A DNA stretch of 61,248 bases, the filler included, from a candidate division TA06 bacterium SM23_40 (GTDB lineage: Bacteria > LJUI01 > SM1-40), in the NCBI GenBank assembly GCA_001303705.1. It is 4 parts of 4 records of this genome, joined end to end, with 100 filler letters (N's around TTAATTAATTAA, not from the genome) between each part and the next. Parts side by side here need not be neighbours in the genome. Positions count along the whole stretch, not along the records: positions 1 to 21,454 come from LJUI01000053.1; 3 more parts are not named here. One strand, given 5' to 3'. The position numbers and the translations under genes were made by a program. Each line of letters opens with the position of its first letter. The first letter of the stretch is position 1. Positions 1 to 54,414 of the stretch are shown one piece after another. The notes beneath the pieces were generated by a model, which was not told the DNA's origin, did not search any database, and was given only the letters and a program-made list of their open reading frames with translations.

Positions 1-943
1 CAACGATGACATCGGATCCGGCCCCTATCACCACGGCTGTAGGCAATGCGAAGAGTATTGACACCCGCAGAGCCGTTTCGTATGTCCGCTTCGTCGCCTC
101 CACAGACCTGGCGAAGCGAGCAGCCATATTGGGCAACAGAGTCCCGCTCAAACTGCCCTGAAAGATGCGTATGACACGGAGAAACCGGAAGGCGACACCG
201 TACAGCCCGACGCTCGTGACGCCAGTCATGAAGGAGAGCATGATGATATCGATTCTCTGCGTTATCAAGCCCATTGCCTGGATCAGGGCGATGGGCAAAC
301 CATCCGTGAACAGCCGAAAGCAGAACTTGATGTCGATGTTGAACCGAAACCGCGCAAAGTAGCGCCCTACGACCACCAGGAGAGCGAATGTCCACAGGAA
401 GGAGGCGGCAATAGCCAACACGACCTGAGCCTCCAGACCGTACCCGGCTATGAGGAGGCCGATCGCGATCACAGTCTGACCCACGGAGAATAACAGGTTG
501 AGCCCGGTAGTGATCTCCATTCGCTCAAACGCCCTGATGATGCTGGCACTCGATTGTCGCATGCCGTGGAGAAGAATCGTCGAGCAGGCGAGGGCGATCA
601 GCCGCACGATCCGCGGCTCGTAGTCAACCATCAGCGTTGCAATGATTGCCACCGCCCAGGCGACGATACTGAAGACCGTCATCATCGTCAGCGCGTTTGA
701 GTAGATGTAGTCCACATCCTCCTTCGACCGCGATACGGCCCGCACGATAACAGGCCCGAGTCCGAAGTTCGCGAGAAGCCCGCCGAAGAATATGAACGAG
801 AAGATTGTCGTAAACACGCCGTAGTCTGTCGCACCGAGGTACCGTGCGAGAAAGATGGCCAGCACGAAGTGCGTCACCATCTCAGACGCACGCCCCACCA
901 CGAGGACGACGAAGTTCTTGGTTATGGTCGCAGCCTGACGCAT
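1..943 (-). CDS. wzx: Wzx-type polysaccharide flippase (3' end runs off the window)
   Basis: Read manually; absent from the ORF track because it has no stop in the window. ATG at 943 after AGGAGAG. MRQAATITKNFVVLVVGRASEMVTHFVLAIFLARYLGATDYGVF is a typical Wzx N-terminus, followed by hydrophobic helices. Confidence 0.85.
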   Translation of the reverse strand, partial: MRQAATITKNFVVLVVGRASEMVTHFVLAIFLARYLGATDYGVFTTIFSFIFFGGLLANFGLGPVIVRAVSRSKEDVDYIYSNALTMMTVFSIVAWAVAIIATLMVDYEPRIVRLIALACSTILLHGMRQSSASIIRAFERMEITTGLNLLFSVGQTVIAIGLLIAGYGLEAQVVLAIAASFLWTFALLVVVGRYFARFRFNIDIKFCFRLFTDGLPIALIQAMGLITQRIDIIMLSFMTGVTSVGLYGVAFRFLRVIRIFQGSLSGTLLPNMAARFARSVEATKRTYETALRVSILFALPTAVVIGAGSDVIV

Positions 944-1074
944 GATCGATACTCTCTCCTCATCCCATCGAGCCCCGGGACCCTCCATCCCCCTGGCAGA
1001 TCTCGGCCGGCGTCTCGCTCCTTGCGCGGAGAGCCAAATCCATCTCCAGACGGACAGATTCTCTGCTCGTGCGC

Positions 1075-2769
1075 TTACCCAACATATCCAAGCCCCCTCA
1101 GCATCTCCTCAACCTTATCTTCCTCCTGATCCGAGTAGGAGAAGCGCCTCTCGGCTCCCGTCCCAGGAATATCCTGTGGCTCCTCGGAGGCGGGCGGATG
1201 GTCACGCAGGTACTCGTCCCTGATACCTCCCTCCAGAATGCGACCGTCCATGTCGCCGGGGACCGGCAGACCCATCAGATAGAGGATAGTGGGCGCTATA
1301 TCAACGATCTTTGCCCCCTGGAGCCGTCTGTTCTGTCCGGTCGCCGGCCCGGCCATGATGATCATCCCGTTCAACCGGTGTGTCGCGCAATGGTGATAGG
1401 CCGGCTTCTGGAGCACAGGTCCGACCGTAGGATCGTTGCGCGGAACATACCGCAGTCCTTTCAGGAGGTAGATGATATCGGGCGCACCTTCGACATATGG
1501 ACCGGCGTACAACTCCTCCCGCCGCTTGACCAGCTCCACGATGGGCGTCCCGTCGGAACCATTCGTGAGGCAGGCGAGCCGCTCGATGATCGAGTCACGA
1601 AGCCGCTCATACTCTTCGCCGGGCGTGACGATCCCCTCTCGCTCCCTCCCCGCGACATTGAGAACGATACTCCCGCCGCAGCCACCGATAAGCGGGGCAT
1701 AGGCCACAGTGCGGCCCCAATCTATATGCGCGAGGCGATCCCGTCTGCGACGCGGAAGACGGGGATGCATGCGTCTCATCGATCCCGGGACGAGGCGCCC
1801 GATACGCCCGAGCCGGCGGCCGCGCAGTATATCCTCCAGCGTCTTCGTTGTCCGGCGGACCTGGTAGCGCGGAAGACGGCCCACCCGCCGCAGCCGGAGC
1901 AACCCCTCTTTCATCAGCCACCTGTTGCAGAAGAAGTAGTGGCTGAACGGACCCGCCCCATGATCAGACATGACGACGACGGAGACATCCTCTCCCACCT
2001 TCTCCAATATCTTCTCTATGGCTCGGTCCACAGCTCGGTACATCTGTGGTATGACAGAATCGTACTTAGCAGACTCCTCGGGGTTGAGTCGACGGTATTC
2101 CTCGTTCCAGAATCTCCACGCGGTGTGCTGCACGATGTCTGTGGCACGAAAGACAACGGCCGCCAGATCCCAATCATGGTTCGTGAGGAGATATATCGCG
2201 GTCTCCATCTTTCTCCTCACATTACCGAACATGTGCTCGAGGCACTCGATCGGCCCAAGTTTGCCGCGCACATAGGAGGGCACGATCTGGTCCTCGAACG
2301 GATACTGACCGACATGGGCCACGATCTCTGCGTGAAGTTCGGGCGGCATCGTGATGATGGTCTCTCTGGACGGGGCGAGAAAGGTAGCGATCATCAGGCC
2401 ATTGATCCGCCAGGGAGGGAAGGTCATCGGGACATCGATGACGATGGAGCGACGGTCCTTTGAACCGGCGATATCCCAGAGAGTTGGGGCACTGATCGAT
2501 CGCGACGTCGCGACAGGCCAATCGTACGTCTCCGGCTCGCGCACACGAAAGCCATACACGCCGTGCTTCCCTGGACTCTTGCCGGTCATGAACGAGGTCC
2601 AGGCAGGCCCCGTCATCGGAGGAATGGTCGATTCGAGCTCGCCCCACGCACCTTGCTCCATGAGGCGGGCCAGCGTAGGGACGAGGCCTTGCTCGATCAG
2701 CGGCCCGATGACATCGAATGTGCCGCCATCGAGTCCGAAGATGACCAATCTATTCCTCTGCCTACTCAC
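1075..2769 (-). CDS. AlkP-superfamily (type I phosphodiesterase/nucleotide pyrophosphatase-like) protein, paralogue 1, with C-terminal LGY tail
   Basis: Motifs IFGLDGGT, STIPPMTGPAWTSFMTGKSPGKHG, DIVQH, SDHG, THRLNG. Ends EEDKVEEMLRGLGYVG. No signal peptide. Confidence 0.9.
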   Translation of the reverse strand: MSRQRNRLVIFGLDGGTFDVIGPLIEQGLVPTLARLMEQGAWGELESTIPPMTGPAWTSFMTGKSPGKHGVYGFRVREPETYDWPVATSRSISAPTLWDIAGSKDRRSIVIDVPMTFPPWRINGLMIATFLAPSRETIITMPPELHAEIVAHVGQYPFEDQIVPSYVRGKLGPIECLEHMFGNVRRKMETAIYLLTNHDWDLAAVVFRATDIVQHTAWRFWNEEYRRLNPEESAKYDSVIPQMYRAVDRAIEKILEKVGEDVSVVVMSDHGAGPFSHYFFCNRWLMKEGLLRLRRVGRLPRYQVRRTTKTLEDILRGRRLGRIGRLVPGSMRRMHPRLPRRRRDRLAHIDWGRTVAYAPLIGGCGGSIVLNVAGREREGIVTPGEEYERLRDSIIERLACLTNGSDGTPIVELVKRREELYAGPYVEGAPDIIYLLKGLRYVPRNDPTVGPVLQKPAYHHCATHRLNGMIIMAGPATGQNRRLQGAKIVDIAPTILYLMGLPVPGDMDGRILEGGIRDEYLRDHPPASEEPQDIPGTGAERRFSYSDQEEDKVEEMLRGLGYVG

Positions 2770-2870
2770 GGATCCGCCTCCATTCCTCTGAGCACCTCAG
2801 CATCTGCCCACATGGCATCGCTCCAGGCACGTATCCAGCCCCGGCCGGCATATCCACGCTCCGCCTACTC

Positions 2871-4556
2871 CTAGCCGAGATATCCCAATTCGCCGAGGTC
2901 CCTCTTGATGCGCCGACGTTCCTCTTGTGAGAAGACCTCCCGGGCGGTATCTGCCTCACCTGCCGGCTCTTCTTTTGCCACAGACCACCGTTCCGGATGC
3001 CGGGCCGCATACTCCTCGCGCAGCGCCCCGGTCAGTACGGCCCCGTCCATGTCGGAGGGGATCTCCATTTCCAGTAAATGCAGGACCGTCGGTGCCAGGT
3101 CCACGATCTGCGCTTCCGCCAACTCAAATCCACTTCTGATGGCAGGCCCCCTCATCATGAGGACGCCTTCCATACGATGCATGCCCAGTCGCTCCTCATC
3201 CGGCTCAGTGATCAGCGCGCGGGCATACGGTAGTACCTGACAGCGGAACTTATGATCGGTCGTCAAGAACGTGATATCCGGAGCCTTGTGTGCCAGGGGC
3301 CCGGTATAGATATCCTCCGGCACCCAGACCTGAGAGATCACCGGCTCGCCTGTTGCAGGATCCCGCAGGGAGCGCAGGCCCTCAATGATCTCCCGGCGCA
3401 GCCTCTCACGCTCTTCTCGTCCCACCTGCTTTCCCCGCTTTCCGAGACTCGGAGTGTTGATGGTGATCTTTATGGGACTCGACACAACGTTCGCAAACGC
3501 CCGGGTGCGGGACCAGTTGACAATCTGTGTCCGATCGCGGCGCAATCGGGGAAAGGGTAGCCTGACGTCACCCAGACGTGCGGGGAGCGCGCGGCCCACC
3601 GCCGCCAGGCCGAGCTTGTCCAGCGCCGCCCGGATCGCGGCCCACCTCACATGAAGCCGGAGAGTCGCAACTGACGGCCATGGCTTCAGTGCGAGGAACC
3701 CTTCATTGTGCAGCCACTTGTTGACATGGAAGCACCGCTTGACCGGGCCAGCACCGTGATCGGACATGATCACCGCCGTTGTACCATCGCCGACGGCGTC
3801 GAGCAATTCGGCAACAACTCCATCGAGAACCTCATAGTACTGATCGATCATCTTGTGGTACATCGCCGTCTCATGCGGGCGTTCGCGCCTATACTCCTCA
3901 TCCGTGTACCGAAAGCCATAGTGCTGAATGACGTCCGGCCCGCGAAACACCACCGCGAAGAAGTCGACGTCATACTTCCTCAGCAGATAGAGAGCTGCCT
4001 GCTTCCGCTTCTCTGTATGGTCGCAGACGCTCCTCAGACCGCCGAGAATGTCGCCGGCGGCGAACGATCCAACGAGCTCCCGCTCCATTGGATAAGAACC
4101 GATCTCCTTGAGCAGATCGGTCTGAAGTGTGGCAGGATAGGTGAATTCGCTCTCCTGCGACGGCGTGAACATTCCCGCAACCATGTACCCGTTGACAGGG
4201 GTGGGCGGGAATGTCATCGGGATATCGATCACCCCGACACGCATACCGCGCTCGCCGATCAGGTCCCAGAGCGTCTTCCCCTGCACCCAGGTAGCATTCG
4301 GCCACAACACTTCCTTGTCGGCGCCAACACAGATCATATCGAATACGCCGTGTTTGCCCGGGTTCTTCCCGGTCATGAACGAGGCCCAGGCAGGCGGCGT
4401 CACTGGCGGCACGGTCGACTGGAGTACTCCCCATGTCCCCTCTTCCATGAACCGACGGAATGTCGGCAGTCGCCCTGCCTCTGCCAAAGGGCGTATAATG
4501 TCGAGGGTGGCTCCGTCCAGACCTATGACCAGTACCTTAACGTTCCTCCCGGCCAC
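2871..4556 (-). CDS. AlkP-superfamily protein, paralogue 2, with LGY tail
   Basis: VIGLDGAT, STVPPVTPPAWASFMTGKNPGKHG, SDHG. Ends EERRRIKRDLGELGYLG. Start placed at GTG 4556 behind GAGGAG (ORF track extends to 4622). Confidence 0.88.
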   Translation of the reverse strand: MAGRNVKVLVIGLDGATLDIIRPLAEAGRLPTFRRFMEEGTWGVLQSTVPPVTPPAWASFMTGKNPGKHGVFDMICVGADKEVLWPNATWVQGKTLWDLIGERGMRVGVIDIPMTFPPTPVNGYMVAGMFTPSQESEFTYPATLQTDLLKEIGSYPMERELVGSFAAGDILGGLRSVCDHTEKRKQAALYLLRKYDVDFFAVVFRGPDVIQHYGFRYTDEEYRRERPHETAMYHKMIDQYYEVLDGVVAELLDAVGDGTTAVIMSDHGAGPVKRCFHVNKWLHNEGFLALKPWPSVATLRLHVRWAAIRAALDKLGLAAVGRALPARLGDVRLPFPRLRRDRTQIVNWSRTRAFANVVSSPIKITINTPSLGKRGKQVGREERERLRREIIEGLRSLRDPATGEPVISQVWVPEDIYTGPLAHKAPDITFLTTDHKFRCQVLPYARALITEPDEERLGMHRMEGVLMMRGPAIRSGFELAEAQIVDLAPTVLHLLEMEIPSDMDGAVLTGALREEYAARHPERWSVAKEEPAGEADTAREVFSQEERRRIKRDLGELGYLG

Positions 4557-4603
4557 GCTCTCGGTCTCCTCTCCCTGAAGGGAGCCATCAACGAGATCCA
4601 GAT

Positions 4604-6301
4604 CTATCCCAGATATCCCCACCCACGGAGTCGCTCGCGGACCTCCTCAGCCTCTTCCTCGCTCACCGCCTCCCGTTCCTCGCGCGCCTCAGTGGCTGCC
4701 ACACCTCGCTCCTCGTACACCACCGGATGGTGCGCCCGATACGACGGGGTCATGGCCTCCTCGAGCGGTCGTCCCTCCATCGCCTCGGGGACGGGAACGC
4801 CCAGGAGATGGAGTACTGTCGGCGCCACGTCCACAATCTTGGCTCCGTCCAGCCGTGCACCGGCCTCGACCCCCTCACCCATCACAAGCAATATCCCCTC
4901 CTCGCGGTGCGATCCCGAGTGCCACCGCTCCGTCTCGATGAGATGACGGGGATAGATGTAATCAGTCAGCTTGCAGCCATAATCTTCTGCGCGCACGATC
5001 AGATCCGGTGAAGACCCGCTCTGCTCGCCCCTGAACACTTCTTCCTTTCGGTACACACGATCTACGACCTGCTCACCCGTCTGCGGATCCCGCAGCGCGA
5101 GCAGACCGCGTTCGATCTCCTCGCAGACTTTGCGGTACTCTCCGTCCGGTTCGACAATGCCTTCCGGCTCACGACCGCGCACATTGACGTAGATGGCTTG
5201 CTCCGCGAGGCTTCCCCCATAGGCGCGCGTCCGTGCCCAGTCTATGACCTTGTACGGATTGATCGCTTTGCGCGGATCCAGATCCTTCCAATTCCCACCT
5301 CGTAGCCCGGGGAAAAGCCGCCGTGTCGTGAAGTACCGCACCCCCATCTTCGACAGCAACTTGTAGAGGATTGCGGGGAGCCGGATCCGCCACAGAGGAT
5401 AGGAAATCGGACGCAGGCGCAACAGGCCCTGTTGTCGCAGCCAGACGTTCATATGGAACATCTTGGTGTTGGGCCCTGCCCCGTGATCAGAAAGGACGAC
5501 GACAGTCGTCCCCTCTCCTGCGCGATCGATGATCTCCCCGAGTGCGGTATCGAGGAATTCGTAGAATCCGTGTATCACGCCGCCGTACCGCTCTGCGAGC
5601 ACTGAATCAAAGGCCGGGTGCGCCCGATCCATGTACTTCCAGAAGAAGTGCTGAACGCGATCTAGAGAAATGAAGACAGCAGTAAGGAGATCCCATTCGT
5701 AGCGATCCATCAGGTAGAGCGTAGCCTGCTTCCTCTGCTCCTCAACACGATAGAACTTCTCGATCAATTCCTCTTTCTCATCCGTGAAGAAGAAGGGTAG
5801 CGTATCGACCTCGGGAAGATAGCTTCCAAGCCGACCGCGCACTTCGTCGAGGAGCCCCGGCGGATGGGTGGCGGTCTCGCGCCTCAGCCCTGCGGCGCCC
5901 ATGAAGCCGGGAAGGACGAACCCATCGATCACTTCGGGCGGATAGGTGAAGGGAACGTTGATCGCTCCCACGCGCCTCCCATTGCGGCTGGCCACTCCAA
6001 ACAGGCTCTCCCCCCGCATGGTGAGACGGCTCGTCACCTCCCGCCGGAATCTGCCGCGCAGCGGGCCGAAAAACCCGAAGATCCCGTGGCTTCCCGGGTT
6101 CTTCCCGGTGAGAAACGATGCCCACGCAGGTGCCGAGAAGGGGGGTACTGTCGAGCGCAGTCTCCCCCACGCCCCCCCTTCCATCATGCGTGCGAAGGTC
6201 GGCAGCTTGCTATCCGCTACGAGTGGTTCTATGACGTCGAAGGTGGCTGAGTCGAATCCAATGACGAGCACCTTCCTGCCAGTTCGCCCCTGCTCCGCCA
6301 A
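4604..6301 (-). CDS. AlkP-superfamily protein, paralogue 3, with WGY tail
   Basis: VIGFDSAT, STVPPFSAPAWASFLTGKNPGSHG, DRVQH, SDHG. Ends EEEAEEVRERLRGWGYLG. Start placed at TTG 6301 behind a purine-rich RBS. Confidence 0.88.
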   Translation of the reverse strand: MAEQGRTGRKVLVIGFDSATFDVIEPLVADSKLPTFARMMEGGAWGRLRSTVPPFSAPAWASFLTGKNPGSHGIFGFFGPLRGRFRREVTSRLTMRGESLFGVASRNGRRVGAINVPFTYPPEVIDGFVLPGFMGAAGLRRETATHPPGLLDEVRGRLGSYLPEVDTLPFFFTDEKEELIEKFYRVEEQRKQATLYLMDRYEWDLLTAVFISLDRVQHFFWKYMDRAHPAFDSVLAERYGGVIHGFYEFLDTALGEIIDRAGEGTTVVVLSDHGAGPNTKMFHMNVWLRQQGLLRLRPISYPLWRIRLPAILYKLLSKMGVRYFTTRRLFPGLRGGNWKDLDPRKAINPYKVIDWARTRAYGGSLAEQAIYVNVRGREPEGIVEPDGEYRKVCEEIERGLLALRDPQTGEQVVDRVYRKEEVFRGEQSGSSPDLIVRAEDYGCKLTDYIYPRHLIETERWHSGSHREEGILLVMGEGVEAGARLDGAKIVDVAPTVLHLLGVPVPEAMEGRPLEEAMTPSYRAHHPVVYEERGVAATEAREEREAVSEEEAEEVRERLRGWGYLG

Positions 6302-6346
6302 GATTTCCTTTCTCCTCCATGCCAGCACGCCGAGCTCGGGGCTCAC

Positions 6347-7969
6347 CTAATCGAGATACCCCAGGCCTGCAAGCTGTCTCATTATGGCTTCCTCTTCGTC
6401 CTTCCTATATCCTCTCTCCTCGAGGTCGATCCTCGCAATCTCGGCCTCCGTCACCTTCACTTCCCTGCTTCTGAGCAGCTCCTCATCGAGCCCCTCTATC
6501 AGGACGCGACCGTCCATAGCGGCCGGGACCGGCAGTCCGAGGAGGTAGAGGAGCGTCGGAGCGATGTCGACCAGAGATGCCTTCTCGAATCGAGCGCCGG
6601 ACGCTGCGTGCGGCCCGGCAGCGATCAATATGCCGTCCATCCGGTGTGTTCCGCCCGTCTGGGTGGTGAAGAGCTCCCGGCACGTCGGCCTATTGTGCTG
6701 TTGATACCTCATCTCCTTCATCTGAAATAGTATATCAGGGGCCAGCTCCGCGAATTCGCCACAATAGACCTCCTCTCGGAACGAGATCGTATCGACCACA
6801 CACTCGCCAGTCTCTAGATCGACCAGCCGTTCGAGCTCGCTCGCGATGCGGCGGCGCAGGTCCCCGTACTCACCACCCCCACTCGCCGCCCCTGCCCCGC
6901 CGTCACGCACATTGATATAGATGCCGAAGTTCCCCGCAAAGGCATCGCTCTTCTCCCAGTCGATCCCGTTCCCGCCCGTGCGAAGCATCGGCAACCGGAC
7001 GACGATCCCCTGGAACCGGTCCGGAAGTCTGGCCGCCAGCCCGCCGAACCCGCATCGCGAAAGAATCCTGCCCACCGTCGCCCGCCTTACCGCCAGCCCC
7101 GCTCCAATCCCCGGCCAGCGGGGCTTCGCATAGCAGAGAAATCCGTGCTCGTTGAGCCAACGGGTGGTGCAGAAGGCTTTGTCGAGATCCCCGAAGCCAT
7201 GATCTGACATCACGAGGACGGTTGTCTCGTCACCGACCTTTGCCATCAATTCGCCAATCCACCGATCGACTGTACGATATGCCTCGGGTATCGCCTCCTC
7301 GAGAGCGCCGCCATGTCGGTAGTGACTCCAACACAGGTGCTGAATCCGGTCGGTCAGTCCGTACACCACGACGAACAGATCCCATTCATCTCGATCGATG
7401 AGATAGGTTGCCGCACGGTGTCGCTGCTCTTCGATCCCCCGGTACCTCCGCGTCCACTCGTTCAGATCGACAGGTACTCCCCGCGGCGGATTCTGCTCCA
7501 GCGGATACTCGCCGAGCGCATTCTCTAACGCAGAGAGAAGTGCGGGCGGATGGACGAAAGCATCGTCCTTTGTCGGCGCGGGCACGCCGGAGATCATGCA
7601 TCCTCGGATCGGCCAACAGGGATAGGTGACCGGCACGTTGATGGCCACAGTGCGCCCGCCGGCCCGGTCGACGATCTCCCAGATAGTAGGCGACTTGATG
7701 GAACGAGATGTTATGAGATGGCGCACTCCACGCCTGATAGCATCGGGAGAGAGCTCGGAGAAGTTGAATATCCCATGCTTCCCCGGATTGACGCCAGTCA
7801 TGAACGACACCCACGCCGGCGCGGTGACCGGGGGAATTGACGATTCGAGGGTACCACGTGCCCCCCGATCGAGCACCCGTGCCATGTTGGGAAGCTCGCC
7901 CCGCGCGACCATCGGATCGATCACATCGAATGTCGCGCCATCGAGCCCGATCACAACTGCCCGATCCAC
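6347..7969 (-). CDS. AlkP-superfamily protein, paralogue 4, with LGY tail
   Basis: VIGLDGAT, SSIPPVTAPAWVSFMTGVNPGKHG, DRIQH, SDHG. Ends DEEEAIMRQLAGLGYLD. Start placed at GTG 7969 behind GGAGGTGA. Confidence 0.88.
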   Translation of the reverse strand: MDRAVVIGLDGATFDVIDPMVARGELPNMARVLDRGARGTLESSIPPVTAPAWVSFMTGVNPGKHGIFNFSELSPDAIRRGVRHLITSRSIKSPTIWEIVDRAGGRTVAINVPVTYPCWPIRGCMISGVPAPTKDDAFVHPPALLSALENALGEYPLEQNPPRGVPVDLNEWTRRYRGIEEQRHRAATYLIDRDEWDLFVVVYGLTDRIQHLCWSHYRHGGALEEAIPEAYRTVDRWIGELMAKVGDETTVLVMSDHGFGDLDKAFCTTRWLNEHGFLCYAKPRWPGIGAGLAVRRATVGRILSRCGFGGLAARLPDRFQGIVVRLPMLRTGGNGIDWEKSDAFAGNFGIYINVRDGGAGAASGGGEYGDLRRRIASELERLVDLETGECVVDTISFREEVYCGEFAELAPDILFQMKEMRYQQHNRPTCRELFTTQTGGTHRMDGILIAAGPHAASGARFEKASLVDIAPTLLYLLGLPVPAAMDGRVLIEGLDEELLRSREVKVTEAEIARIDLEERGYRKDEEEAIMRQLAGLGYLD

Positions 7970-8068
7970 CGTTCTCGTCACCTCCCACAGGCCGTCGACA
8001 CCGTGGATTCTCGTTGCCGGAAGAGGCAACGCACAGATAGAAGTCTTTTATACAGCATAGAGGAATTC

Positions 8069-9424
8069 TCAGTCGACGAGGGACCGCCCGTCCACATCTG
8101 ACGGAATGGGCACCCTGAGCAGGGAAAGCACGGTCGGCATCACATCGACGATCGAGAACTCGTCACGCGTGATCTCTTCTCCTCTGATGAATAGAAACGC
8201 ATCCTCAAAGGTGTGCATCCCGACAAGCTCTCCCTTATGCGTCAGCTCGGGCCTGTTCAGCGCTCCCTTCAGATCGTAGCCCCTCCGGGGTACGGCAATC
8301 AGATCCGGCGCCGCGTCGAATGAATCACCGAAATATATCTCCTCTCTCTTCACAACCTTCTCGATCATCTGTTCGCCACTGTCGGGATCAGTCAGCTCGG
8401 CGAGTCCCTCGGCGAGCTCGGCCCGCACCCTTTCGTACTCATCCCCCGGTGCCACGCTCCCCTTCGGCTCCCTCCCACGAAGATTCACATAGATGCGACC
8501 CGGGTCGAGGCTGAACGCCCGGGACCGCTCGTCGATCTCCTTGATGGACTGCTCGTTCTGATTATCGAAGACGAGCCATCCCCCATCGACAAGCCAATGG
8601 TTGATGTACACTTCCTTCTTCAGGGTGCAGAATCCATGGTCCGAGAGCACTGCCAACGTTGTTCTCCCATCGAGTCGGGAGACCAGGCCCGCGATCATCT
8701 CATCGATCTTCCGGTAGTAATCAAGAAATGCGGCAGCGTACGGCCCTTCACCAAGCTCCATCTGTTCCCAGAGAAAGTGATTGATCCTGTCCGTGCCCAT
8801 GAAGTGGGTCATGAAGAAGTCCCACTCTTCGTGTTCCATGAGGTAGAACATCGTCGCCGCCCGTCTCGACAAGACTTCGTTGAGGTCATCCAGAAACGGC
8901 GTCTTGTCCTTCTCCCTTCCCTTCCATGGATCGACATCGATGCGATATCCGAGTTCCGAGAGTTTCCGCGCGAGCTGCCGAGGATACGTTGCCTTGTTGA
9001 GGTCCGGGGACAGAAAGCAGCCGACGAGGAAGCCGTTAACCTCGCGAGGCGGATACGTCACGGGAACGTTCATCACACCCACGCGTCTGCCGGTCCGCCC
9101 GATCACCTCCCACAGCGTGTCGCTCTTCATATCGGTGGAGAGCGGTATGTAGGTATCATAGGTTCGAGGCCGCCGATCCTGGAATCCGTATATGTTGTGT
9201 TTCCCCGGATTCTTCCCTGTCATGAACGACGACCACGCCACCGAGGAAACGGTAGGCAGCACGGAGTTCATCCGCTTCCACGAACCATCCCCGAACAGGC
9301 GACCGAGATGGGAGAAGACACTCTCTCCGATCATCCTGTTGACAAACGAATAGGGCACCCCATCGAGGCCCACAACCACCACACGTCTCTTTCCTCCTCT
9401 CCGCAATCCTCCCAGAAATCGCAT
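8069..9424 (-). CDS. AlkP-superfamily protein, paralogue 5 (short form, no LGY tail)
   Basis: VVGLDGVP, SVLPTVSSVAWSSFMTGKNPGKHN, DRINH, SDHG. Ends DGRSLVD. Confidence 0.9.
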   Translation of the reverse strand: MRFLGGLRRGGKRRVVVVGLDGVPYSFVNRMIGESVFSHLGRLFGDGSWKRMNSVLPTVSSVAWSSFMTGKNPGKHNIYGFQDRRPRTYDTYIPLSTDMKSDTLWEVIGRTGRRVGVMNVPVTYPPREVNGFLVGCFLSPDLNKATYPRQLARKLSELGYRIDVDPWKGREKDKTPFLDDLNEVLSRRAATMFYLMEHEEWDFFMTHFMGTDRINHFLWEQMELGEGPYAAAFLDYYRKIDEMIAGLVSRLDGRTTLAVLSDHGFCTLKKEVYINHWLVDGGWLVFDNQNEQSIKEIDERSRAFSLDPGRIYVNLRGREPKGSVAPGDEYERVRAELAEGLAELTDPDSGEQMIEKVVKREEIYFGDSFDAAPDLIAVPRRGYDLKGALNRPELTHKGELVGMHTFEDAFLFIRGEEITRDEFSIVDVMPTVLSLLRVPIPSDVDGRSLVD

Positions 9425-9513
9425 AACTCACTTTCTCCTCAAGCCCTGAGTGCGATCAAGCGAGCTGCCAACGAGAACGGCCACCCGCGGCCCGCGGATA
9501 GCCAGAAAGAGAC

Positions 9514-10131
9514 CTAGAGATACCCGAGGTTTGTCAATCGTTCCTTGACTTTCTCCTCCTCCTCCTTGGTATAGACTCCCTCTCCGCCTTCGGCCGTCTC
9601 CCCCTCCCCGAGGTACCCGAGCTCACGCAGCTTAGCCATCACCTTCTGCGCACTCTCCCCGGGAGCCTCTTTGTCAGTATCGACGACTACCTCCGGGGCG
9701 AGCGGCTCTTCATATGGATCGTCTATCCCTGTGAATCCCTGTATCTCACCGGCGCGGGCCTTCTTGTACATGCCCTTCACATCCCTCTGCTCGCATACCT
9801 CCACCGGGCAGCGGACATACACCTCCACGAAATTACCGATCTCCATACGCGCGTGGTCGCGGATCGCCCGATAGGGTGAGATCGCAGCGGCGATGGTGGC
9901 AGCGCCGTTTCGGGTGAGGAGCTTGCAGACAAACGCGATCCGCTTGATGTTCGTATCCCGGTCCTCTTTGCTGAAGCCCAGTCCCTTGCTCAGGTTTGTG
10001 CGCACCACGTCGCCATCCAACACTTCGACGTTTCGACCGGTCGCTCGGATCTCTTTCTCCACGATCTGCGAGACGGTTGTCTTGCCCGAACACGGCAACC
10101 CGGTGAACCAGACAGTGAACCCCTTGGCCAT
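9514..10131 (-). CDS. cysC: Adenylyl-sulfate (APS) kinase with an extra C-terminal LGY tail
   Basis: [13 protein letters not shown]-loop, [52 protein letters not shown]. Confidence 0.97.
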
Positions 10132-10153
10132 TCTCGACTCCTTTCCTCTTCGC

Positions 10154-11542
10154 TCAACTGATGGCCTTCCCTTCCATATCGCCGGGGATATCGATACCTA
10201 ACAGACTGAGGACTGTCGGCCCGCAATCTACGATGTGCAACCCCTCGAGCCTGCCCTTCGGCGCTCCATCCGGATTGTGCATGATGAAGATGCCGTACTC
10301 CGCGTGGTTCGCGTCGTCCGGGCCGGTATCGTTCTCAAAGGTATGCACGGTATCGAGGCCGATGCTCCCCACCGACCGCCAATCGAGATCGCCGAAGTAG
10401 ACGATGAGATCTGGAGGAATCCCCTTCACCTCTGAATAGATCTCCTGAGGCCTGAAGACGCGCGTTCCGATATTGCGCCCCTCGGGATCTTCGATCGCCT
10501 CCAACTTCTCCTTCAGCTCATCCCGCACCTTCTCGTAGTCCTGAGGAGCAATGATGCCGGCCGGCTCCCGATTCTTCACGTTCAGGAACAGCCGGCCGTA
10601 GTAACCTCCATCCCCCCAAGCCATGGTATTCGCCCAGTCTATATCGTCCGGCTCGAGCCGTCGGACCCGGTCCGGCCTCTTCTTCAGGCGGAGATAGCCC
10701 TCCCGGATCAGCCACTCATTGAAACAGATGCCGCCATCCATCTTCTTGGCGCCATGATCGGATACGACCATTACCGCGGTGCGATCATCGACGAGATCGA
10801 GTGTCTTGCCGACCTCGTCGTCCACATACCGGTAGTAGTCGAGGATGGCAGACTCATAGCGTGACCCTCGTTGGTACTTCGGATGCTCTGTGTCGAAGTA
10901 CTTCCAGAATCCATGGTGTATCCTGTCGATTCCCATGTCGACCACCATGAAGAAGTCCCATGGCTTCTTTCGCATAAGGTATCTCGTCAACTCGAACCGG
11001 TTGGCTGTCATCTCGTAGATCTGCTTCAGCAGGGAATCTTTGTCGTCTGTGCGGAAGTTGTCTACGTCGAGGATATATCCGCCAATTGCTTCATTGATCT
11101 CCTGCTTCAGGCTTGCCGGATAGGTGTACTCGCTGTCAGTACTCGGCGTGAGGAAGCACGTCACCAGGTACCCATTGACTGGTTTGGGCGGATAGGTCTG
11201 AGGCACACCCAGGACCACCACGTCCCTGCCGTGACGCGACAGGATATCCCAGACTGCATCCTCCCTCACCAGCGTCGAATTGGCGAAAACAAGCTTGCTG
11301 TATGAGTAGTCGCCCCGGTTTCGGAAGCCATAGAATCCAAGCCTTCCCGGATTCTTGCTCGTCATCATTGACGTCCACGCAGGGACAGTGATCGGCGGCA
11401 CGATCGTCTGGAGTGGTCCGTACGCCCCTCGCGCCATCACACTGCTGAGGTTCGGGAGCCGATCCCGCCACCGATCGAAGACAAGCTGCGGAGTGGCACA
11501 GTCCAGTCCGATCACAAGAACCCTCTTCGTTTCACTTCCCAT
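10154..11542 (-). CDS. AlkP-superfamily protein, paralogue 6 (short form, no LGY tail)
   Basis: [52 protein letters not shown]. Confidence 0.9.
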
Positions 11543-11575
11543 CGTTCACTGACCTCCGGCATTCAGGCGATGCAA

Positions 11576-12736
11576 TCACAATTGCTGATAGTATTCGCGG
11601 AGTATCTCCACAACCTCCGGCCGCGAGAATTCCACCGGCAGATCCTCACCCTTCTTGAGGAGCTCACGAACCTTCGTGCCGCTCAGGTACACGTGATCGG
11701 ACTCTTTGTGAGGACACGTCTTGAACGAAGCCATAGTCTGACATCTCTTGCAATAGAATGCGTTGTCGAAAAAGAGCGGCCTGATACCCAATTCCTCTTC
11801 GGTGAAGTCGTCGAATATCTTCTGGGCATCGAATGGGCCGTAGTACTTCCCGACGCCCGCGTGGTCGCGGCCGACGATGAAGTGGGTGCAGCCATAGTTC
11901 TTCCGCATGATCGAATGGAAGATCGCCTCCATGGGACCGGCGTAGCGCATCGCAGCCGGCAGCACGATGAGCGCCGTCCTGTCCCCTGGATAGTAACCCT
12001 CGAGCAAGACCTCATAGCATCGCATGCGGACCTCGGCCGGGATGTCATCCTTTTTCGTCTCCCCGACAAGAGGATGAAGCAGGAGGCCGTCGCATATCTC
12101 CAGGGCACACTTCTGTATATATTCGTGAGCCCGATGGACCGGATTTCTCGTCTGGAAGCCCACAACCGTCTCCCAGCCCTTCGACCTGAACAGCTCCCTC
12201 GATTGGGCGGGATCGAGCCGATACTTCTTGAAGTCGTCGTGCCGCGGCCTCTCGAGAACAGTAACCTTACCGCCCAGCGTGATCTCTGCTGTCTCATACA
12301 GGCGAGCAACCCCGGGATGATTGGCATCGGTCGTCCCGAAGACCGCCTGCGCCTCCTCCTCTCTATTCCGTCTATAGACGTCCTCCACCTCGATAATGCC
12401 GAGGCGCTTCCCGGTGTCATCGACCAGGGCTACATCCACTCCCTCCTTAATCTTGGCCGCCTCCTCCTGCGTCGCTGAGAGCGTGATCGGAATGGTCCAG
12501 ACAGTCCCGTCGACAAGGCGGTGCTCTCTCACCACTGTACGGTAGTCCTTCTCACACATGTAGCCCTCGAGAGGGCTGAATCCTCCGATGGCGAGCAGCT
12601 CGAGATCCGAGAGTTCGGTGCCCTTCAAACGGATCGCAGGCAGCTCACCAATGCGCGCACTCAGCCCCTCCCGAGCCTCACCATCGACCAGTCGGTTGAC
12701 TAATTTCCCACCGTGTGGCGAGATCTGCTCGTGCAT
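11576..12736 (-). CDS. sat: Sulfate adenylyltransferase (ATP sulfurylase, Sat type)
   Basis: [47 protein letters not shown] 12736 behind GGAG. Confidence 0.97.
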
Positions 12737-12799
12737 CGTCTTCCTCCACACTGTCAGGAGCGGACGCTGACCCGCGGCTGCCCTACAGCAGCGCCGCAA

Positions 12800-14071
12800 T
12801 CATCCGCCGCTCGTCGTCACCGCCACCTCCTCATTACCAGTTGAAAGCCCGTACGTATCGTACACAAACAGCCTGAAGTAGTACGTCGTCGCCGGAATCA
12901 GACTCCGGACGGTATAAGACGTTGCCCCCACATCCGTGATCGAGACGATCAGCTCCCCGTTCTCCTCGGTGACGCCCGGTTCAGGCCCCATGTAGAGATT
13001 GTAGGAGGCAAAGTCCACGTCCCCCGACTCGCTCCAGAAGAGGCGAACGGTATCCGGCCCGACGACGAATGGCGGAGCGAACTCGACGCCATGCGGGGGC
13101 TCATTGATCGTTATCCTGCTCGAGGCAGCCACGGGTGTCGCCTGGTTCATGGCTACATCAGTGAAGGCCCCGACAACAAGCGCGTCGAAGACCTCATCAC
13201 CGGACTGCACAACGTAGTCTACCTCGTATACCCCATCGTCCGGCTGTACATCACCACCCGTACCATCATCCCACAGAAAGATGAAGTGCTGATCTCGGAA
13301 CGCTACCCGTGCTGTCCCGCCTGGCTCCCCTGCGACGACCGTGAAGTGTATGATATCGCCAACCAACATAACCTCTCCGCCCGTATCCTCTGTCACCTCA
13401 TCGATATGTGCGTAGGTGTCGAGGATGATACTGTCCGAGACGGGAGCGGTCGCCAGGCCGCCGCCATCGCGGAACCGGGCGTAGCTGTACTTCATTCCAT
13501 CCCCTGCCGTCAGCGTCCAATCGATAGGTCCCTCAGAAAACGGCTGCCACTCGGCTCCCTGGAAGGTCTCGTCATTGCTCAGAATCATCTCGACGATATC
13601 GGCGAAGGCAGAGAGGGTGAGGACGACGGATCGTGAGTTCGTGTACGCCTCGCCACCATTGATGGTGATGGAATAGCTACGGGGCACGGCCGATACGGGA
13701 CCAGCACGATGCCCCTCGATCCCGCGTTCATCGACCGCGCCTACGAGGTACGAGAACTCAATACCGTTGACCAGACCCTCGTCCACATACGAGAGGTCAG
13801 TCGTGGCGGCGAGCCTCCTGGGCCCCCCGGATCCAATGTGACTGCGATAGACTAGGAAATGATCGACAGCCGAGAGATCGCCGTACCGCCAGCTCAGCGT
13901 CACACTGCGATTCCCCGGCACCGCAACGAGTGAGTCCGGCGCCGGCAATGCAGAGCCACCGCCGTCTGGATCCCCGGGGTTAAGAAAGACCGGCGGTGCA
14001 TGCTGCTTGTCACAGGAGACAAGCCCTGCCAGCGCCAACAGGCCGCTGGCAAGACTCAGAGCGATCTTCAT
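12800..14071 (-). CDS. Lipoprotein with fibronectin type III domains
   Basis: Lipobox-like LAGLVSC; FN3-like segments at both ends; central DDGTGGDVQPDDGVY acidic loop. Confidence 0.75.
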   Translation of the reverse strand: MKIALSLASGLLALAGLVSCDKQHAPPVFLNPGDPDGGGSALPAPDSLVAVPGNRSVTLSWRYGDLSAVDHFLVYRSHIGSGGPRRLAATTDLSYVDEGLVNGIEFSYLVGAVDERGIEGHRAGPVSAVPRSYSITINGGEAYTNSRSVVLTLSAFADIVEMILSNDETFQGAEWQPFSEGPIDWTLTAGDGMKYSYARFRDGGGLATAPVSDSIILDTYAHIDEVTEDTGGEVMLVGDIIHFTVVAGEPGGTARVAFRDQHFIFLWDDGTGGDVQPDDGVYEVDYVVQSGDEVFDALVVGAFTDVAMNQATPVAASSRITINEPPHGVEFAPPFVVGPDTVRLFWSESGDVDFASYNLYMGPEPGVTEENGELIVSITDVGATSYTVRSLIPATTYYFRLFVYDTYGLSTGNEEVAVTTSGG

Positions 14072-14135: not shown

Positions 14136-14945
14136 TCAATGGCAGGGCCACCACTGGAATGCGATACTGACACCGAGCGAGAAGTCCATCGGTTCCGGCG
14201 CAGCGCCGCCACTCGAAACCGAGCTATAGCGGCCAGCGCTGACGCCTACCTCCACGCCAGCCGGGTCGTACACGACAGCGTCAATGACGGCAATCGCCCA
14301 GATTCCGGCGGCGACATAGGTGGCGTAGTTCATGTAGTCATGTGAACGTTCCACATTCCGATAGTTCTTCTCAACTTCCTGCCGAAGCCTCACAATATCG
14401 CCAACATAGGTGGCCTCTTCATACCGAAGTACCGACTCTTCGTATCGCTCGACTTCGTCCTGGTAGTTCCGCCTCAGTAGATACGCCGATCCGGCGGCGA
14501 GTATCTCGCCGCAAATGAAGGTCCAGCCTTTTCGGTTCTCTCCCGCGTACAACTGCCCCCATCCCGGTATGACGAGCGAACGGGCCGCGGCGCTCATCCT
14601 GCTCTTGGGCGCAAGGGCAAAGGCTAGACGCAGCGTGTCGCCGGCGACAAGTCCTACGTCGAGCGTCCTCGTCTCAAATCTCGGATGCTCGATCGTCAGA
14701 CGGTAGCTTCCTCCGGGCAAGTCACTGCAGCGAAACGGAGTATATCCCCTCACCGTCAGTATGCCGGACAGGCACACCGAAGTTCTCGCCGGTGCTGTAT
14801 CCAGCACGATCGCAGCGCCATCATAGCCGAGCCCGCCTCCCGAGATTCCACCTACCGCCGCGGCAGATCCAGCGCACCCCTCACCCCACATGCCCGTGAT
14901 GAAAAAGGCCAAACACACGACAGCCAACGTCGGAAGCATCTTCAC
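14136..14945 (-). CDS. Secreted/membrane protein with a PEGA-like domain and a 'PGWGQ' membrane domain
   Basis: Signal peptide; GYTPF...LPGGSYRLTIEHPRFE (PEGA-like); RSLVIPGWGQLY. Start placed at GTG 14945. Confidence 0.7.
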   Translation of the reverse strand: MKMLPTLAVVCLAFFITGMWGEGCAGSAAAVGGISGGGLGYDGAAIVLDTAPARTSVCLSGILTVRGYTPFRCSDLPGGSYRLTIEHPRFETRTLDVGLVAGDTLRLAFALAPKSRMSAAARSLVIPGWGQLYAGENRKGWTFICGEILAAGSAYLLRRNYQDEVERYEESVLRYEEATYVGDIVRLRQEVEKNYRNVERSHDYMNYATYVAAGIWAIAVIDAVVYDPAGVEVGVSAGRYSSVSSGGAAPEPMDFSLGVSIAFQWWPCH

Positions 14946-15168
14946 GATCGTCTTCCCTCGCTTTGAGCTGCATGTCTGCGTCAAGCGGCCCGAAGGCCCT
15001 GCCCCCCTGTCATCCGGCGCCAATTGCAGATCGGGACGTTCGACCCCTGCAATAAAAGGTGGTGCAACAGATTGGCGCTGCACCAACGAGGCACACAATC
15101 TTCGCTGATTGGCCTAGGTCTCTGCAGCGACAGGCGTTCCGTCCCTGGGGAGAAACGCCACACGTCTA

Positions 15169-15348: not shown

Positions 15349-16664
15349 CTATGCCGCGCCGTTGCCCCTGATGACGGCCGGAATCGTCCGGAGCATGATC
15401 GCCAAGTCGAGCTTTAGCGACCAGTTATCTATATACTTGAGATCGAGGTTAACCCACTCGCGGAACGGCGTATCGCTTCTCCCCCCTACCTGCCACAGAC
15501 AGGTGAGCCCCGGCCTCATCGACAGCCTCCTCTGCTGCCACCAGTCGTAATGCTCCACTTCCGCAGGGATGGGCGGACGGGGACCGACAAGGCTCATTTC
15601 ACCCTTCAGAACGTTGAACAACTGGGGCAGCTCATCAAGGCTGGTCTTCCTCAAGAACTTACCCATTCTCGTGATGCGAGGATCGTCCCGTATCTTGAAC
15701 ACCGGCCCGGTCCCCTCGTTCAGACAGAGGTCAGCTTGATGAGCAGCGCTACGAGCAGGAGAAGCGGAGAGAGCAGGATAAGAAGGAAGGACGAGACAGC
15801 GATGTCGATGAGTCTCTTGATCTGAAAGCTCAACCCGGCACGCGGCCCGCTGGAGATGTCCAACAGCGGGATGTCGTCGAGAACAGCGAACGAGTCTGTT
15901 GCCACCTTCAGGCGGAAGAGGTCTGAAGGTACACGTACCGGCACCCCACACTCCTCGCAGAGCGCCACGATCTCCTCGATACGTTTGTAGAACGATTTGA
16001 TCGGCAGGGTGATGTACACCTCGTCGATCACGTATCGGTGAAGCACATCTTCGAACTCTTTCAGATTCCCGATTATCGTGACATCATCGTTGACGAAGGG
16101 CGTCCGGTGGGGCCCTTCGGTGTCGTCGATGTAGCCGAGCAAGTGGAGCCCGTAACCGCGGTTGTCGGTGATCTTCTTGCCCAGACGCCGAGACCGGTTG
16201 TTCGTTCCTATGATGACGACATTACGGTAATTGTAGCCGAGCTTCCTGAGTGTTCGGAGACTTCCCCGTATCACCACCCGCGAGACCCCGAGAACGCTCG
16301 TATCGATCAACCAGAAAATCAACAGGAAGGTCTTGTCCAGACGCAATGGATTGAGGAGAAGTACGACCAATGCTCCCGCCGCGATGGAGATCGTTGTAAC
16401 CTTTGCGATGTCGAGATACTCTCTCCTCAGTTTGGTCGTTCTCTTCGACGAGTAGAGGTGAAAACGATCCGAGACCACCAGCCACGCCACTATGTAGACG
16501 AGAAGTAGCAGCACGCCGCTACCCACGAAAGCCCTGCGTTCGTACTGCAGCGGCGAGAACTGCCACTCCCAGATCGCCCAGCTGACGCCGAACGCGAGAC
16601 CGGCGATCAACAGATCAGCGCCCGTCAGTATTCCCGTCAGTAAGTTCGCATACCGCTTAAGCAC
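15349..16664 (-). pseudogene. Priming polyprenyl glycosylphosphotransferase (WcaJ/EpsE-type sugar transferase), frameshifted near 15720 (possible assembly artefact)
   Basis: N-part ends ...IKLTS; C-part in another frame reads [18 protein letters not shown]...LDELPQL...SLVGPRP...RPGLT. The conserved segment between them is missing. Confidence 0.85.
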
Positions 16665-21092: not shown

Positions 21093-21454
21093 GCAAAAAT
21101 TTCACACACGCCAGAGGCTGCGCCGGGGCCACAGAAACCCGATTCCGCACATTTCCTTGCGGTAGGCAAGGGCCTCAACCCTCGACGGCGACGGATCAGA
21201 TTACCCACCTGCCAAGCCCGAAACACGGCGGCGGATGCCGGGCGGAATGGTCGCCACGCAGAAGATGCCTGGGATCTGTTTGTCGCGTATCGGGGCTGCC
21301 GTTGGGATGTCGCGACATCGGAGACGGCAGCCACCATCTCCGCCCGCACCATGATCATAGGGCCTGTCGAATAAGGCGTACCACCCCCCTGCCCGGAAAC
21401 AGGATCCGCGTCCGTGCATTCGTGGCCGCAGGCGTCGTCATCGAAGAGAGGATG

Positions 21455-21554
21455 NNNNNNNNNNNNNNNNNNNNNNNNNNNNNNNNNNNNNNNNNNNNTT
21501 AATTAATTAANNNNNNNNNNNNNNNNNNNNNNNNNNNNNNNNNNNNNNNNNNNN
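21455..21554. other. Artificial contig linker
   Basis: N-run containing TTAATTAATTAA (stops in all six frames). Confidence 0.98.
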
Positions 21555-38631: not shown

Positions 38632-38731
38632 NNNNNNNNNNNNNNNNNNNNNNNNNNNNNNNNNNNNNNNNNNNNTTAATTAATTAANNNNNNNNNNNNN
38701 NNNNNNNNNNNNNNNNNNNNNNNNNNNNNNN
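38632..38731. other. Artificial contig linker
   Basis: N-run with TTAATTAATTAA. Confidence 0.98.
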
Positions 38732-54314: not shown

Positions 54315-54414
54315 NNNNNNNNNNNNNNNNNNNNNNNNNNNNNNNNNNNNNNNNNNNNTTAATTAATTAANNNNNNNNNNNNNNNNNNNNNNNNNNNNNN
54401 NNNNNNNNNNNNNN
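54315..54414. other. Artificial contig linker
   Basis: N-run with TTAATTAATTAA. Confidence 0.98.

Follow-up and report, generated by a model that had tools for sequence, protein, structure and literature searches.

In a 61,248 nt stretch of DNA from candidate division TA06 bacterium SM23_40 (GCA_001303705.1), hereafter the window, the genes for ATP sulfurylase (sat) and for the kinase of adenosine 5'-phosphosulfate (APS), cysC, are interleaved with six genes for proteins of the alkaline phosphatase (AlkP) fold, here named AlkP1 to AlkP6, and are followed by a gene for the flippase Wzx. AlkP1, which is encoded between sat and cysC, is by sequence comparison an orthologue of the nucleotide pyrophosphatase/phosphodiesterase (NPP)-like enzyme of archaeal sat clusters, and is most likely a by-product hydrolase that removes pyrophosphate (PPi), not a new sulfotransferase. 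The reading that we favour, and hold to be slightly better than an even bet, is that this is a Wzx-dependent polysaccharide operon with its own supply of 3'-phosphoadenosine 5'-phosphosulfate (PAPS), in which AlkP1 removes PPi, AlkP2 removes 3'-phosphoadenosine 5'-phosphate (pAp) and the longer paralogues have tailoring roles. An earlier note on this DNA had proposed that all six AlkP proteins are sulfotransferases, each serving a position of its own. As a whole that proposal is not supported, as AlkP1 is the orthologue of a reported pyrophosphatase, AlkP2 is a doubtful candidate and no evidence of sulfuryl transfer was found for AlkP3 to AlkP6.

Runs of N at positions 21455-21554, 38632-38731 and 54315-54414 part four contigs (C175, C176, C177 and C180) of a metagenome-assembled genome (MAG) of 2.88 Mb in 189 contigs that is 89.8% complete. 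C175 is present in its entirety (positions 1-21454) and is the sole contiguous part that bears on the AlkP and sat genes; because the remaining parts are different contigs separated by N, genes to the right of position 21454 are not neighbours of the run. A phylum-level search of the sampled genome set returned the window's MAG as the sole species of its phylum. The genes of the run were previously described as co-directional, and all indeed lie on the minus strand of C175. They are listed here from left to right, with the AlkP proteins divided into a short and a long type:

2..988, minus strand: wzx flippase, N-terminal 329 amino acids (aa), cut by the contig end (PF01943, 4.3e-30; seven hydrophobic segments)
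1075..2769, minus strand: AlkP6, long type, 564 aa, T nucleophile, cytoplasmic (PF01663, 2.1e-38; without a hydrophobic stretch)
2871..4622, minus strand: AlkP5, long type, 583 aa, T nucleophile (PF01663, 5.7e-38)
4604..6346, minus strand: AlkP4, long type, 580 aa, S nucleophile (PF01663, 1.5e-45)
6347..8029, minus strand: AlkP3, long type, 560 aa, T nucleophile (PF01663, 3.5e-40)
8069..9424, minus strand: AlkP2, short type, 451 aa, S nucleophile (PF01663, 1.2e-47)
9514..10131, minus strand: cysC, APS kinase (PF01583, 2e-64; NF002059, 266 bits, cut-off 244)
10154..11542, minus strand: AlkP1, short type, 462 aa, T nucleophile (PF01663, 7e-52)
11576..12799, minus strand: sat, ATP sulfurylase with PUA_2 (PF01747, 3.7e-100; PF14306, 5.5e-56; NF003166, 569 bits, cut-off 387)

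Six AlkP paralogues had been counted before, and six is the number on C175; the genome total is 10 strong PF01663 genes, with three more on contig C59 and one on C62. The minus strand of C59 carries, in order, a 5'-open reading frame (ORF) of 201 aa at the right contig end, a family 2 glycosyltransferase (GT2) gene, three AlkP genes, a second GT2 gene and a weak GNAT-like ORF. Compared with Wzx homologues of full length, the piece on C175 covers residues 1-317. The 5'-open ORF on C59 covers residues ~310-466 (E 1e-9) and is probably the missing C-terminal part. The ends of C59 and C175 have no exact overlap in common. As the Wzx halves on the two contigs complement each other, C59 probably continues the operon of C175 past wzx, and nine AlkP genes would therefore lie in one run. 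The AlkP copy on C62 is surrounded by GT4 genes, an asparagine synthase gene and a DegT aminotransferase gene.

The supply line in the reading that we favour would be a conserved four-gene module of Sat, AlkP1, CysC and AlkP2. Sat makes APS and PPi, and CysC converts APS to PAPS. AlkP1 most likely hydrolyses the PPi released by Sat via a phospho-Thr intermediate at a two-metal site, and this removal would draw the sulfurylase reaction, which is unfavourable, towards its products. AlkP2 most likely removes pAp, the second by-product that inhibits, a role proposed from gene position only. The long paralogues would then probably act on the lipid-linked repeat unit or its precursors. We take the pathway to serve sulfation rather than assimilation because neither a PAPS reductase nor a sulfite reductase turned up in the 89.8%-complete MAG and the flanking genes are polysaccharide genes.

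All six window AlkP proteins match PF01663 at 132-178 bits (cut-off 23). As stated in the earlier note, none appears to have a signal peptide (a crude Kyte-Doolittle scan found no 19-residue hydrophobic stretch) and each has Thr or Ser as nucleophile, the motif PxxT/SxxAW reading T, S, T, S, T and T in AlkP1 to AlkP6. They differ from the formylglycine sulfatases of PF00884 in that none has C/SxPxR at the nucleophile position (a stray CWPIR at residue 138 of AlkP3 is away from the motif), and PF00884 matches only two of the six, at 18-19.5 bits (cut-off 25). Six residues, D14, D206, H210, D262, H263 and H413, are invariant in an alignment of all 10 genome paralogues, and we take these to be the NPP two-metal ligands, an assignment that the alignment with PhnA supports. 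The Asn of the NPP motif HGIxGN contacts the transferred phosphoryl group; the corresponding column reads F, F, F, F, M and F in the window proteins and N in PhnA.

A predicted model of AlkP4 (predicted local distance difference test score 83) has an NPP-like fold. Foldseek matched it to ENPP1 with an E value of 7e-16 and to Xac NPP, PhnA and ENPP5 with TM-scores of 0.65-0.70 (target length), and the closest solved folds were ENPP1, ENPP3, Xac NPP, PhnA and ENPP6, at 12-16% identity. The window proteins are thus like NPP/ENPP enzymes and PhnA, all of PF01663, in fold, aligned metal ligands and nucleophile, but are distant in sequence, are cytoplasmic and have Phe or another residue in place of the Asn. 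The long type has two further features that set it apart from these enzymes as well as from AlkP1 and AlkP2: ~100 inserted residues and a C-terminal tail whose last residues are LGY. Searching the PDB by sequence gave no match for AlkP1 and a marginal match to PhnA for AlkP4, and NCBIfam held no model for the AlkP proteins, returning only weak PhnA, iPGM or arylsulfatase fragments. In the ESM Atlas, all matches were clusters without a name of their own ('alkaline phosphatase family protein'), of which the largest has 1241 members.

The assignment of AlkP1 comes from the archaea. AlkP1 is 47% identical over its full length (E 1e-162) to a Pyrococcus yayanosii protein (P0167) named 'Type I phosphodiesterase / nucleotide pyrophosphatase', which is 30% identical to each of AlkP2 and AlkP4. 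Orthologues that are 45-50% identical to AlkP1 were found in 23 of 41 sampled Archaeoglobales genomes. Four of six Archaeoglobales loci (L176 and L178-L180) have the order Sat, a protein of ~320 aa, AlkP1, CysC and a protein of ~248 aa; Pfam identified the ~320 aa protein as DHH and the ~248 aa protein as TauE in L176 and L178. Sat was not found by BLASTP in the other two (L175 and L177). In one Bathyarchaeia genome, Sat adjoins AlkP1. In a tree of 178 family members (quick method, midpoint root, support by the Shimodaira-Hasegawa-like approximate likelihood ratio test, SH-aLRT), the AlkP1 clade comprises 63 rows, those from archaea nested among them, with an SH-aLRT of 100.

According to PMC8268124, a cluster found in P. 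yayanosii, Thermococcus onnurineus, Ferroglobus and others (PYCH_17530-17560 in P. yayanosii and TON_1704-1707 in T. onnurineus) starts with ATP sulfurylase, followed by a DHH pAp phosphatase, then a type I phosphodiesterase/nucleotide pyrophosphatase and last an APS kinase; a TauE-like gene adjoins it. The same text has the NPP-like PYCH_17550 'speculated' to degrade PPi. In PMC4463584, TON_1705 is given as a pyrophosphatase and TON_1706 as a PAP phosphatase, citing earlier work, and Table 1 of PMC9653972 lists a pH optimum of 9.5, a kcat of 2.1 per s and a Km of 18.8 µM for TON_1705. Within this cluster, AlkP1 was compared with the P. yayanosii protein. As AlkP1 is orthologous to the archaeal sat-cluster protein, whose T. 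onnurineus member is reported as a pyrophosphatase, we conclude that by-product hydrolysis is its most likely function. The bacterial module resembles the archaeal cluster in the place of AlkP1 between sat and cysC and in the single clade that the two proteins form. However, it has no DHH gene and instead a second AlkP paralogue after cysC, its AlkP1 is often fused to Sat in Chloroflexota, and in the window it forms part of a polysaccharide operon of the Wzx type that encodes another seven paralogues.

The tie between this family and sat and cysC that the earlier note expected was borne out, and this functional link goes far beyond chance. Scanning metagenomes with AlkP1 turned up 79 loci, of which three that are 100% identical were set aside as other assemblies of the same organism. 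The remaining 76 are 41-65% identical to AlkP1 and include several close relatives that are not independent. With at least 600 bases upstream and at least 300 bases downstream required for neighbour counts, Sat is directly upstream of AlkP1 in 24/65 loci, CysC is directly downstream in 27/57 and one or the other adjoins AlkP1 in 36/76. Flank is sufficient on both sides in 47 loci; of these, both genes adjoin AlkP1 in 17, one does in five and neither does in 25. The sampled genomes include one locus with all four genes of the module in the order AlkP1, CysC, AlkP2, Sat (L003), one with AlkP1, CysC and AlkP2 (L062) and one with a Sat-CysC fusion followed by AlkP1 (L065).

Sat and AlkP1 are encoded in a single ORF in four metagenome loci, three of which were confirmed with Pfam:

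L084:1110-3755: Sat-AlkP1 fusion ORF
L085:5156-7789: Sat-AlkP1 fusion ORF
L119:909-3698: Sat-AlkP1 fusion ORF

At least 120 protein clusters (P0002-P0121) have the same architecture, with PUA_2, ATP-sulfurylase and Phosphodiest domains in ~860 aa and 57-66% identity to AlkP1 across 99% of its length. They are mainly from Chloroflexota, and their annotation goes no further than 'ATP sulfurylase' or 'sulfate adenylyltransferase'; a literature search found nothing on the Sat-AlkP1 fusion architecture. A fusion of ATP sulfurylase with an inorganic pyrophosphatase in stramenopiles and haptophytes has been explained as pulling the unfavourable reaction (PMC2275785), and we propose that AlkP1 is often fused to Sat because PPi removal drives the Sat reaction. 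In both cases sulfurylase is joined to an enzyme able to remove PPi, but the eukaryotic partner is described as an 'inorganic pyrophosphatase' and the bacterial partner is an AlkP-fold domain of the NPP family.

Other recurring neighbourhoods of AlkP1 were seen. In one lineage (L105-L112 and L102-L103), AlkP1 is the leading gene of an operon that also has an NAD-dependent epimerase gene and one or two genes of the UDP-glucose dehydrogenase family, and Sat and CysC flank this operon in some members only. Beside AlkP1 in L085, L086, L089, L093, L156 and L158, there is a recurring gene set that includes two AlkP proteins of ~700 aa, a multi-pass membrane protein of ~275 aa without a Pfam family, and an LtaS-like protein with 5-7 transmembrane (TM) helices and PF00884 but without CxPxR.

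AlkP2 forms a clade of its own (18 tree rows, SH-aLRT 100), separate from that of AlkP1. A gene of this type follows cysC in the window, L003, L062 and nine metagenome loci. In L091 a gene for a PHP protein follows cysC, and in L096 and L097 one directly follows AlkP1 with no cysC between. L113 has a SurE gene after cysC and a CysQ-like gene nearby, and in the archaeal module the DHH pAp phosphatase gene is between sat and AlkP1. Because DHH, PHP or SurE phosphatases are encoded nearby in other loci, as if one were displaced by another, AlkP2 may be a pAp phosphatase, a candidacy that follows from gene position.

The long proteins form older and more diverse groups in the tree than the AlkP1 and AlkP2 clades. 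AlkP5 groups with AlkP6, with the product of C59 3434-5248 and with genes of L005 and L019. As L005 and L019 hold, in their tandem arrays, a separate counterpart for each of AlkP4, AlkP5 and AlkP6, the duplications are old and have been retained. The family has thousands of unnamed members in Chloroflexota, Verrucomicrobiota, Archaeoglobales and many candidate phyla, in polysaccharide loci. Among 78 genome loci collected with the AlkP family alignment, the usual neighbours are GT4 (26 loci) and wzx (18 loci) genes, together with those for GT2, PF00884 proteins, Wzc, Wza and Wzy. Both sat and cysC are present in 4/78, any trace of either is found in 6/78 and neither lies inside 10 kb in 72/78. 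In a MAG of Caldithrix, a 122 aa Sat remnant consisting of PUA_2 only (L067:9411-9779) is directly upstream of two long AlkP genes, which suggests a decayed PAPS module. In a Nitrospirae MAG, two soluble PF00884 proteins with SGSH_C and without C/SxPxR (L019:1724-2998 and L019:10401-11684) are encoded amid long AlkP genes.

Across genomes, the long paralogues are statistically tied to the PAPS module. In a sample of 301 Chloroflexota genomes (including G236; paralogue threshold E 1e-30, with up to five candidates scored per genome), AlkP1 orthologues were found in 35 and other paralogues in 37. Both were present in 24, AlkP1 alone in 11, paralogues alone in 13 and neither in 253, which gives an odds ratio of 42 and a Fisher p of 5e-18, not corrected for phylogeny. 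AlkP1 is thus present in 24/37 genomes with paralogues vs 11/264 without them, and in at least 10 Chloroflexota genomes the paralogues and AlkP1 are 3-13 kb apart on one contig. All nine Archaeoglobales genomes with long paralogues have AlkP1, compared with 23/41 overall (p 0.002). Genomic co-occurrence with cysC, which the earlier note put forward as a check, is uninformative at the level of whole genomes, with APS kinase over the cut-off in 42/50 AlkP-bearing genomes vs 11/14 controls. As MAGs, the other eight of the 50 decide little; two of them have Sat and four a CysD-like gene.

The earlier note had also found no PAPS reductase, sulfite reductase or canonical sulfotransferase in the locus. 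This holds for C175 and for C59, its probable continuation: no canonical sulfotransferase (PF00685, PF13469, PF03567, PF17784 or PF19798) was found on C175, C59 or the C62 stretch. Furthermore, the PAPS_reduct family and NIR_SIR were not found in the entire MAG, and no member of the Sulfotransfer_1, _2, _3 or _5 families scored over the cut-off in the entire MAG, at 89.8% completeness. The only sulfotransferase-like genes in the MAG encode two paralogues, both with a P-loop-like GxGRCGTK motif:

G000:C114:3024-3794 (L081): P0001, weakly supported by Sulfotransfer_4 (29 bits, cut-off 22.8)
G000:C36:12156-13001 (L201:8157-9002): P0242, with Sulfotransfer_3 at 22 bits (under the cut-off of 27) and E 4.5e-19 with a home-built hidden Markov model (HMM)

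Both are on small contigs, among phage genes for an SU10-like adaptor, portal and capsid. As PAPS synthesis is present and the sulfotransferase-like genes have a phage context, the host locus is without a recognisable PAPS consumer. The home-built HMM gave matches in 2/78 and 3/76 of the AlkP loci, and no canonical sulfotransferase was detected by Pfam among 93 neighbouring ORFs of seven loci and 133 ORFs of 20 module loci. Two conserved neighbours were considered as hidden sulfotransferases and rejected, as one (c8, ~275 aa) is a multi-pass membrane protein and the other (c3) is LtaS-like, with 5-7 TM helices and PF00884 without CxPxR. In Chloroflexota, matches to PF13469 or PF00685 are present in 20 of the 35 genomes with AlkP1 (15 have none), in 8/13 with paralogues only and in 4/20 controls with neither. 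They are present in 23/37 genomes with paralogues, and in several (G032:C45, G175:C443, G238:C30, G316:C37, G379:C9 and G301:C1) a canonical sulfotransferase gene shares a cluster with long AlkP genes.

That the long paralogues are part of sulfated-glycan biology is clear. These cytoplasmic two-metal Ser/Thr enzymes probably tailor the repeat unit on its lipid carrier, or precursors of it, during synthesis of the sulfated glycan. If the locus encodes the enzyme that transfers sulfate, they are the sole candidates, and a sulfotransferase role is possible. In its fullest form, this idea has the long paralogues of C175, C59 and C62, and perhaps AlkP2, as new PAPS-dependent glycan sulfotransferases that work through a sulfo-Ser/Thr intermediate at a two-metal site, each on one position of the lipid-linked repeat unit; we find it a real possibility, though well short of even. 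For AlkP3 to AlkP6 and the C59 copies, we place a sulfotransferase role at about one in four, level with a role in phosphate chemistry. PAPS synthesis without a recognisable consumer is the strongest point for the sulfotransferase idea, alongside the co-directional run shared with sat and cysC, the ties to AlkP1 in Chloroflexota and Archaeoglobales, and the many AlkP1-bearing genomes and AlkP loci in which sulfotransferase models found nothing. The presence of seven paralogues in tandem, whose orthologues stay distinct in other phyla, also fits a set of enzymes with differing specificities. Covalent Ser/Thr catalysis on glycan and lipid acceptors by LtaS, EptA/MCR-1 and OpgB provides a model for transfer, and LtaS-like genes (5-7 TM helices and PF00884, no CxPxR) adjoin AlkP genes in other loci, but those enzymes are membrane-anchored, extracytoplasmic members of PF00884 and the window proteins have no membrane segment. 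With canonical PAPS sulfotransferases (PF00685 and PF13469), the window proteins share a genomic place beside PAPS synthesis genes inside a glycan cluster, but no sequence or fold relationship. We know of no AlkP-fold Ser/Thr sulfotransferase, a literature search for one found nothing relevant, and the one characterised relative is reported as a hydrolase. Nor would sulfate transfer explain the 72 long-type loci that lack sat and cysC, the eight genomes without APS kinase over the family cut-off (all MAGs, six of which have Sat or a CysD-like gene), or the canonical sulfotransferases that accompany the paralogues in most paralogue-bearing Chloroflexota genomes. It is equally tentative that the long paralogues perform phosphate chemistry, as pyrophosphatases, phosphodiesterases or phospho-transferases acting on nucleoside diphosphate (NDP)-sugars, NDP by-products or the polyprenyl-pyrophosphate repeat unit, with sat and cysC feeding an unrecognised or unassembled sulfotransferase. 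PF01663 membership, the complete set of aligned metal ligands, the Ser/Thr nucleophile and the closest solved folds (ENPP1, ENPP3, Xac NPP and PhnA) agree with this, as do the sister-clade orthologue reported to hydrolyse PPi, the predominance of polysaccharide loci without sat or cysC, and the 89.8% completeness of the MAG, which leaves room for a missed sulfotransferase. It leaves unexplained the link to AlkP1 and the PAPS module at genome and contig level and the need for seven paralogues, and C175 and C59 showed no genes that would make donors of phospho-substituents, such as CDP-glycerol or CDP-choline.

The roles that we favour for AlkP1 and AlkP2 also have evidence against them. A pure helper of Sat would not be predicted to stand apart from sat and cysC, as AlkP1 does in the 25 two-flank loci that have neither, and some of the AlkP1 genes free of both adjoin genes for UDP-glucose dehydrogenase and an epimerase. 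In Anaerolineales, the neighbours of AlkP2-clade genes are not cysC but genes that encode an epimerase and a glycosyltransferase of the PMT-like kind. The kcat of TON_1705 is low against the ~3e4 per s of the T. onnurineus family-I pyrophosphatase (PMC9653972), and hydrolysing PPi may be a side activity of the enzyme. PMC8268124 states that no sulfotransferase was identified in P. yayanosii, so that there too PAPS has no known consumer. Some of these points, namely the low kcat and the persistence of AlkP1 beside dehydrogenase and epimerase genes, would suit AlkP1 itself being a sulfotransferase or another user of PAPS or APS, as would the Phe in place of the phosphoryl-contacting NPP Asn. The archaeal module, as set out in PMC8268124, likewise has a pAp phosphatase and an exporter-like gene and no known PAPS consumer. 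We nevertheless think this unlikely: identities of 45-65% across bacteria and archaea suggest a universal small substrate, a canonical sulfotransferase (c33) is encoded four genes from AlkP1 in L092, L128 and L146, and the precedent of PMC2275785 is a simpler account of the Sat fusions. Very improbable indeed is ordinary sulfate assimilation, with the place of sat and cysC among AlkP genes incidental. APS kinase is widespread, which speaks for it, but PAPS reductase families and sulfite reductase were not found in the MAG, the interleaved order is kept across phyla and domains, and Sat-AlkP1 fusions exist.

An attractive over-reading is corrected by these results, as one of the six supposed sulfotransferases is the counterpart of an archaeal enzyme reported as a pyrophosphatase. 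That archaeal sat-cluster enzyme belongs to a large group of bacterial and archaeal orthologues, many of them fused to ATP sulfurylase, and Sat-AlkP1 is a recurring sulfate-activation architecture. The open problem that has been isolated is a big family of cytoplasmic AlkP-fold proteins that is genomically tied to PAPS synthesis and to sulfated-glycan loci. No PAPS consumer is known in this MAG, in the 15 AlkP1-bearing Chloroflexota genomes noted above or, going by PMC8268124, in Pyrococcus. A broader and still more tentative proposal is that the long AlkP family is a second, unrecognised class of carbohydrate sulfotransferases, using PAPS via a covalent sulfo-Ser/Thr at a two-metal centre, with Sat-AlkP1-CysC-AlkP2 as its donor-supply and by-product unit. 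If long AlkP enzymes do transfer sulfate, the catalogue of microbial producers of sulfated polysaccharides would need revision, with a bearing on marine and soil carbon cycling and on glycan engineering.

Upstream of sat, C175 carries further genes on the minus strand:

12800..14071, minus strand: fn3-domain protein directly upstream of sat, with a lipoprotein-like N-terminus (PF00041, 5e-8; N-terminal hydrophobic stretch ending in C)
14136..15098, minus strand: PEGA/DUF5683 membrane protein
15349..16664, minus strand: priming polyprenyl-phosphate sugar-phosphate transferase, its ORF broken into two overlapping frames (15349-15951 and 15720-16664; Bac_transf, 1.7e-46; CoA_binding_3, 1e-20; EPS_sugtrans/WcaJ models)
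17949..20174, minus strand: 741 aa protein upstream of the priming transferase, with a partial AlkP-superfamily region and BNR repeats (Metalloenzyme and Sulfatase models below cut-offs)

The priming transferase reported earlier is thus present upstream of the run, but it is split, and the PEGA/DUF5683 and fn3 genes are between it and sat. In another assembly of the same organism (L082), it is a single ORF of 476 aa and the sequence differs by an additional 114 bases and 11 mismatches, while L083 differs again at this site. The split is probably due to assembly collapse or strain variation. In gene order on this strand, a gene for a PD40/OmpA-like protein also precedes that of the priming transferase.

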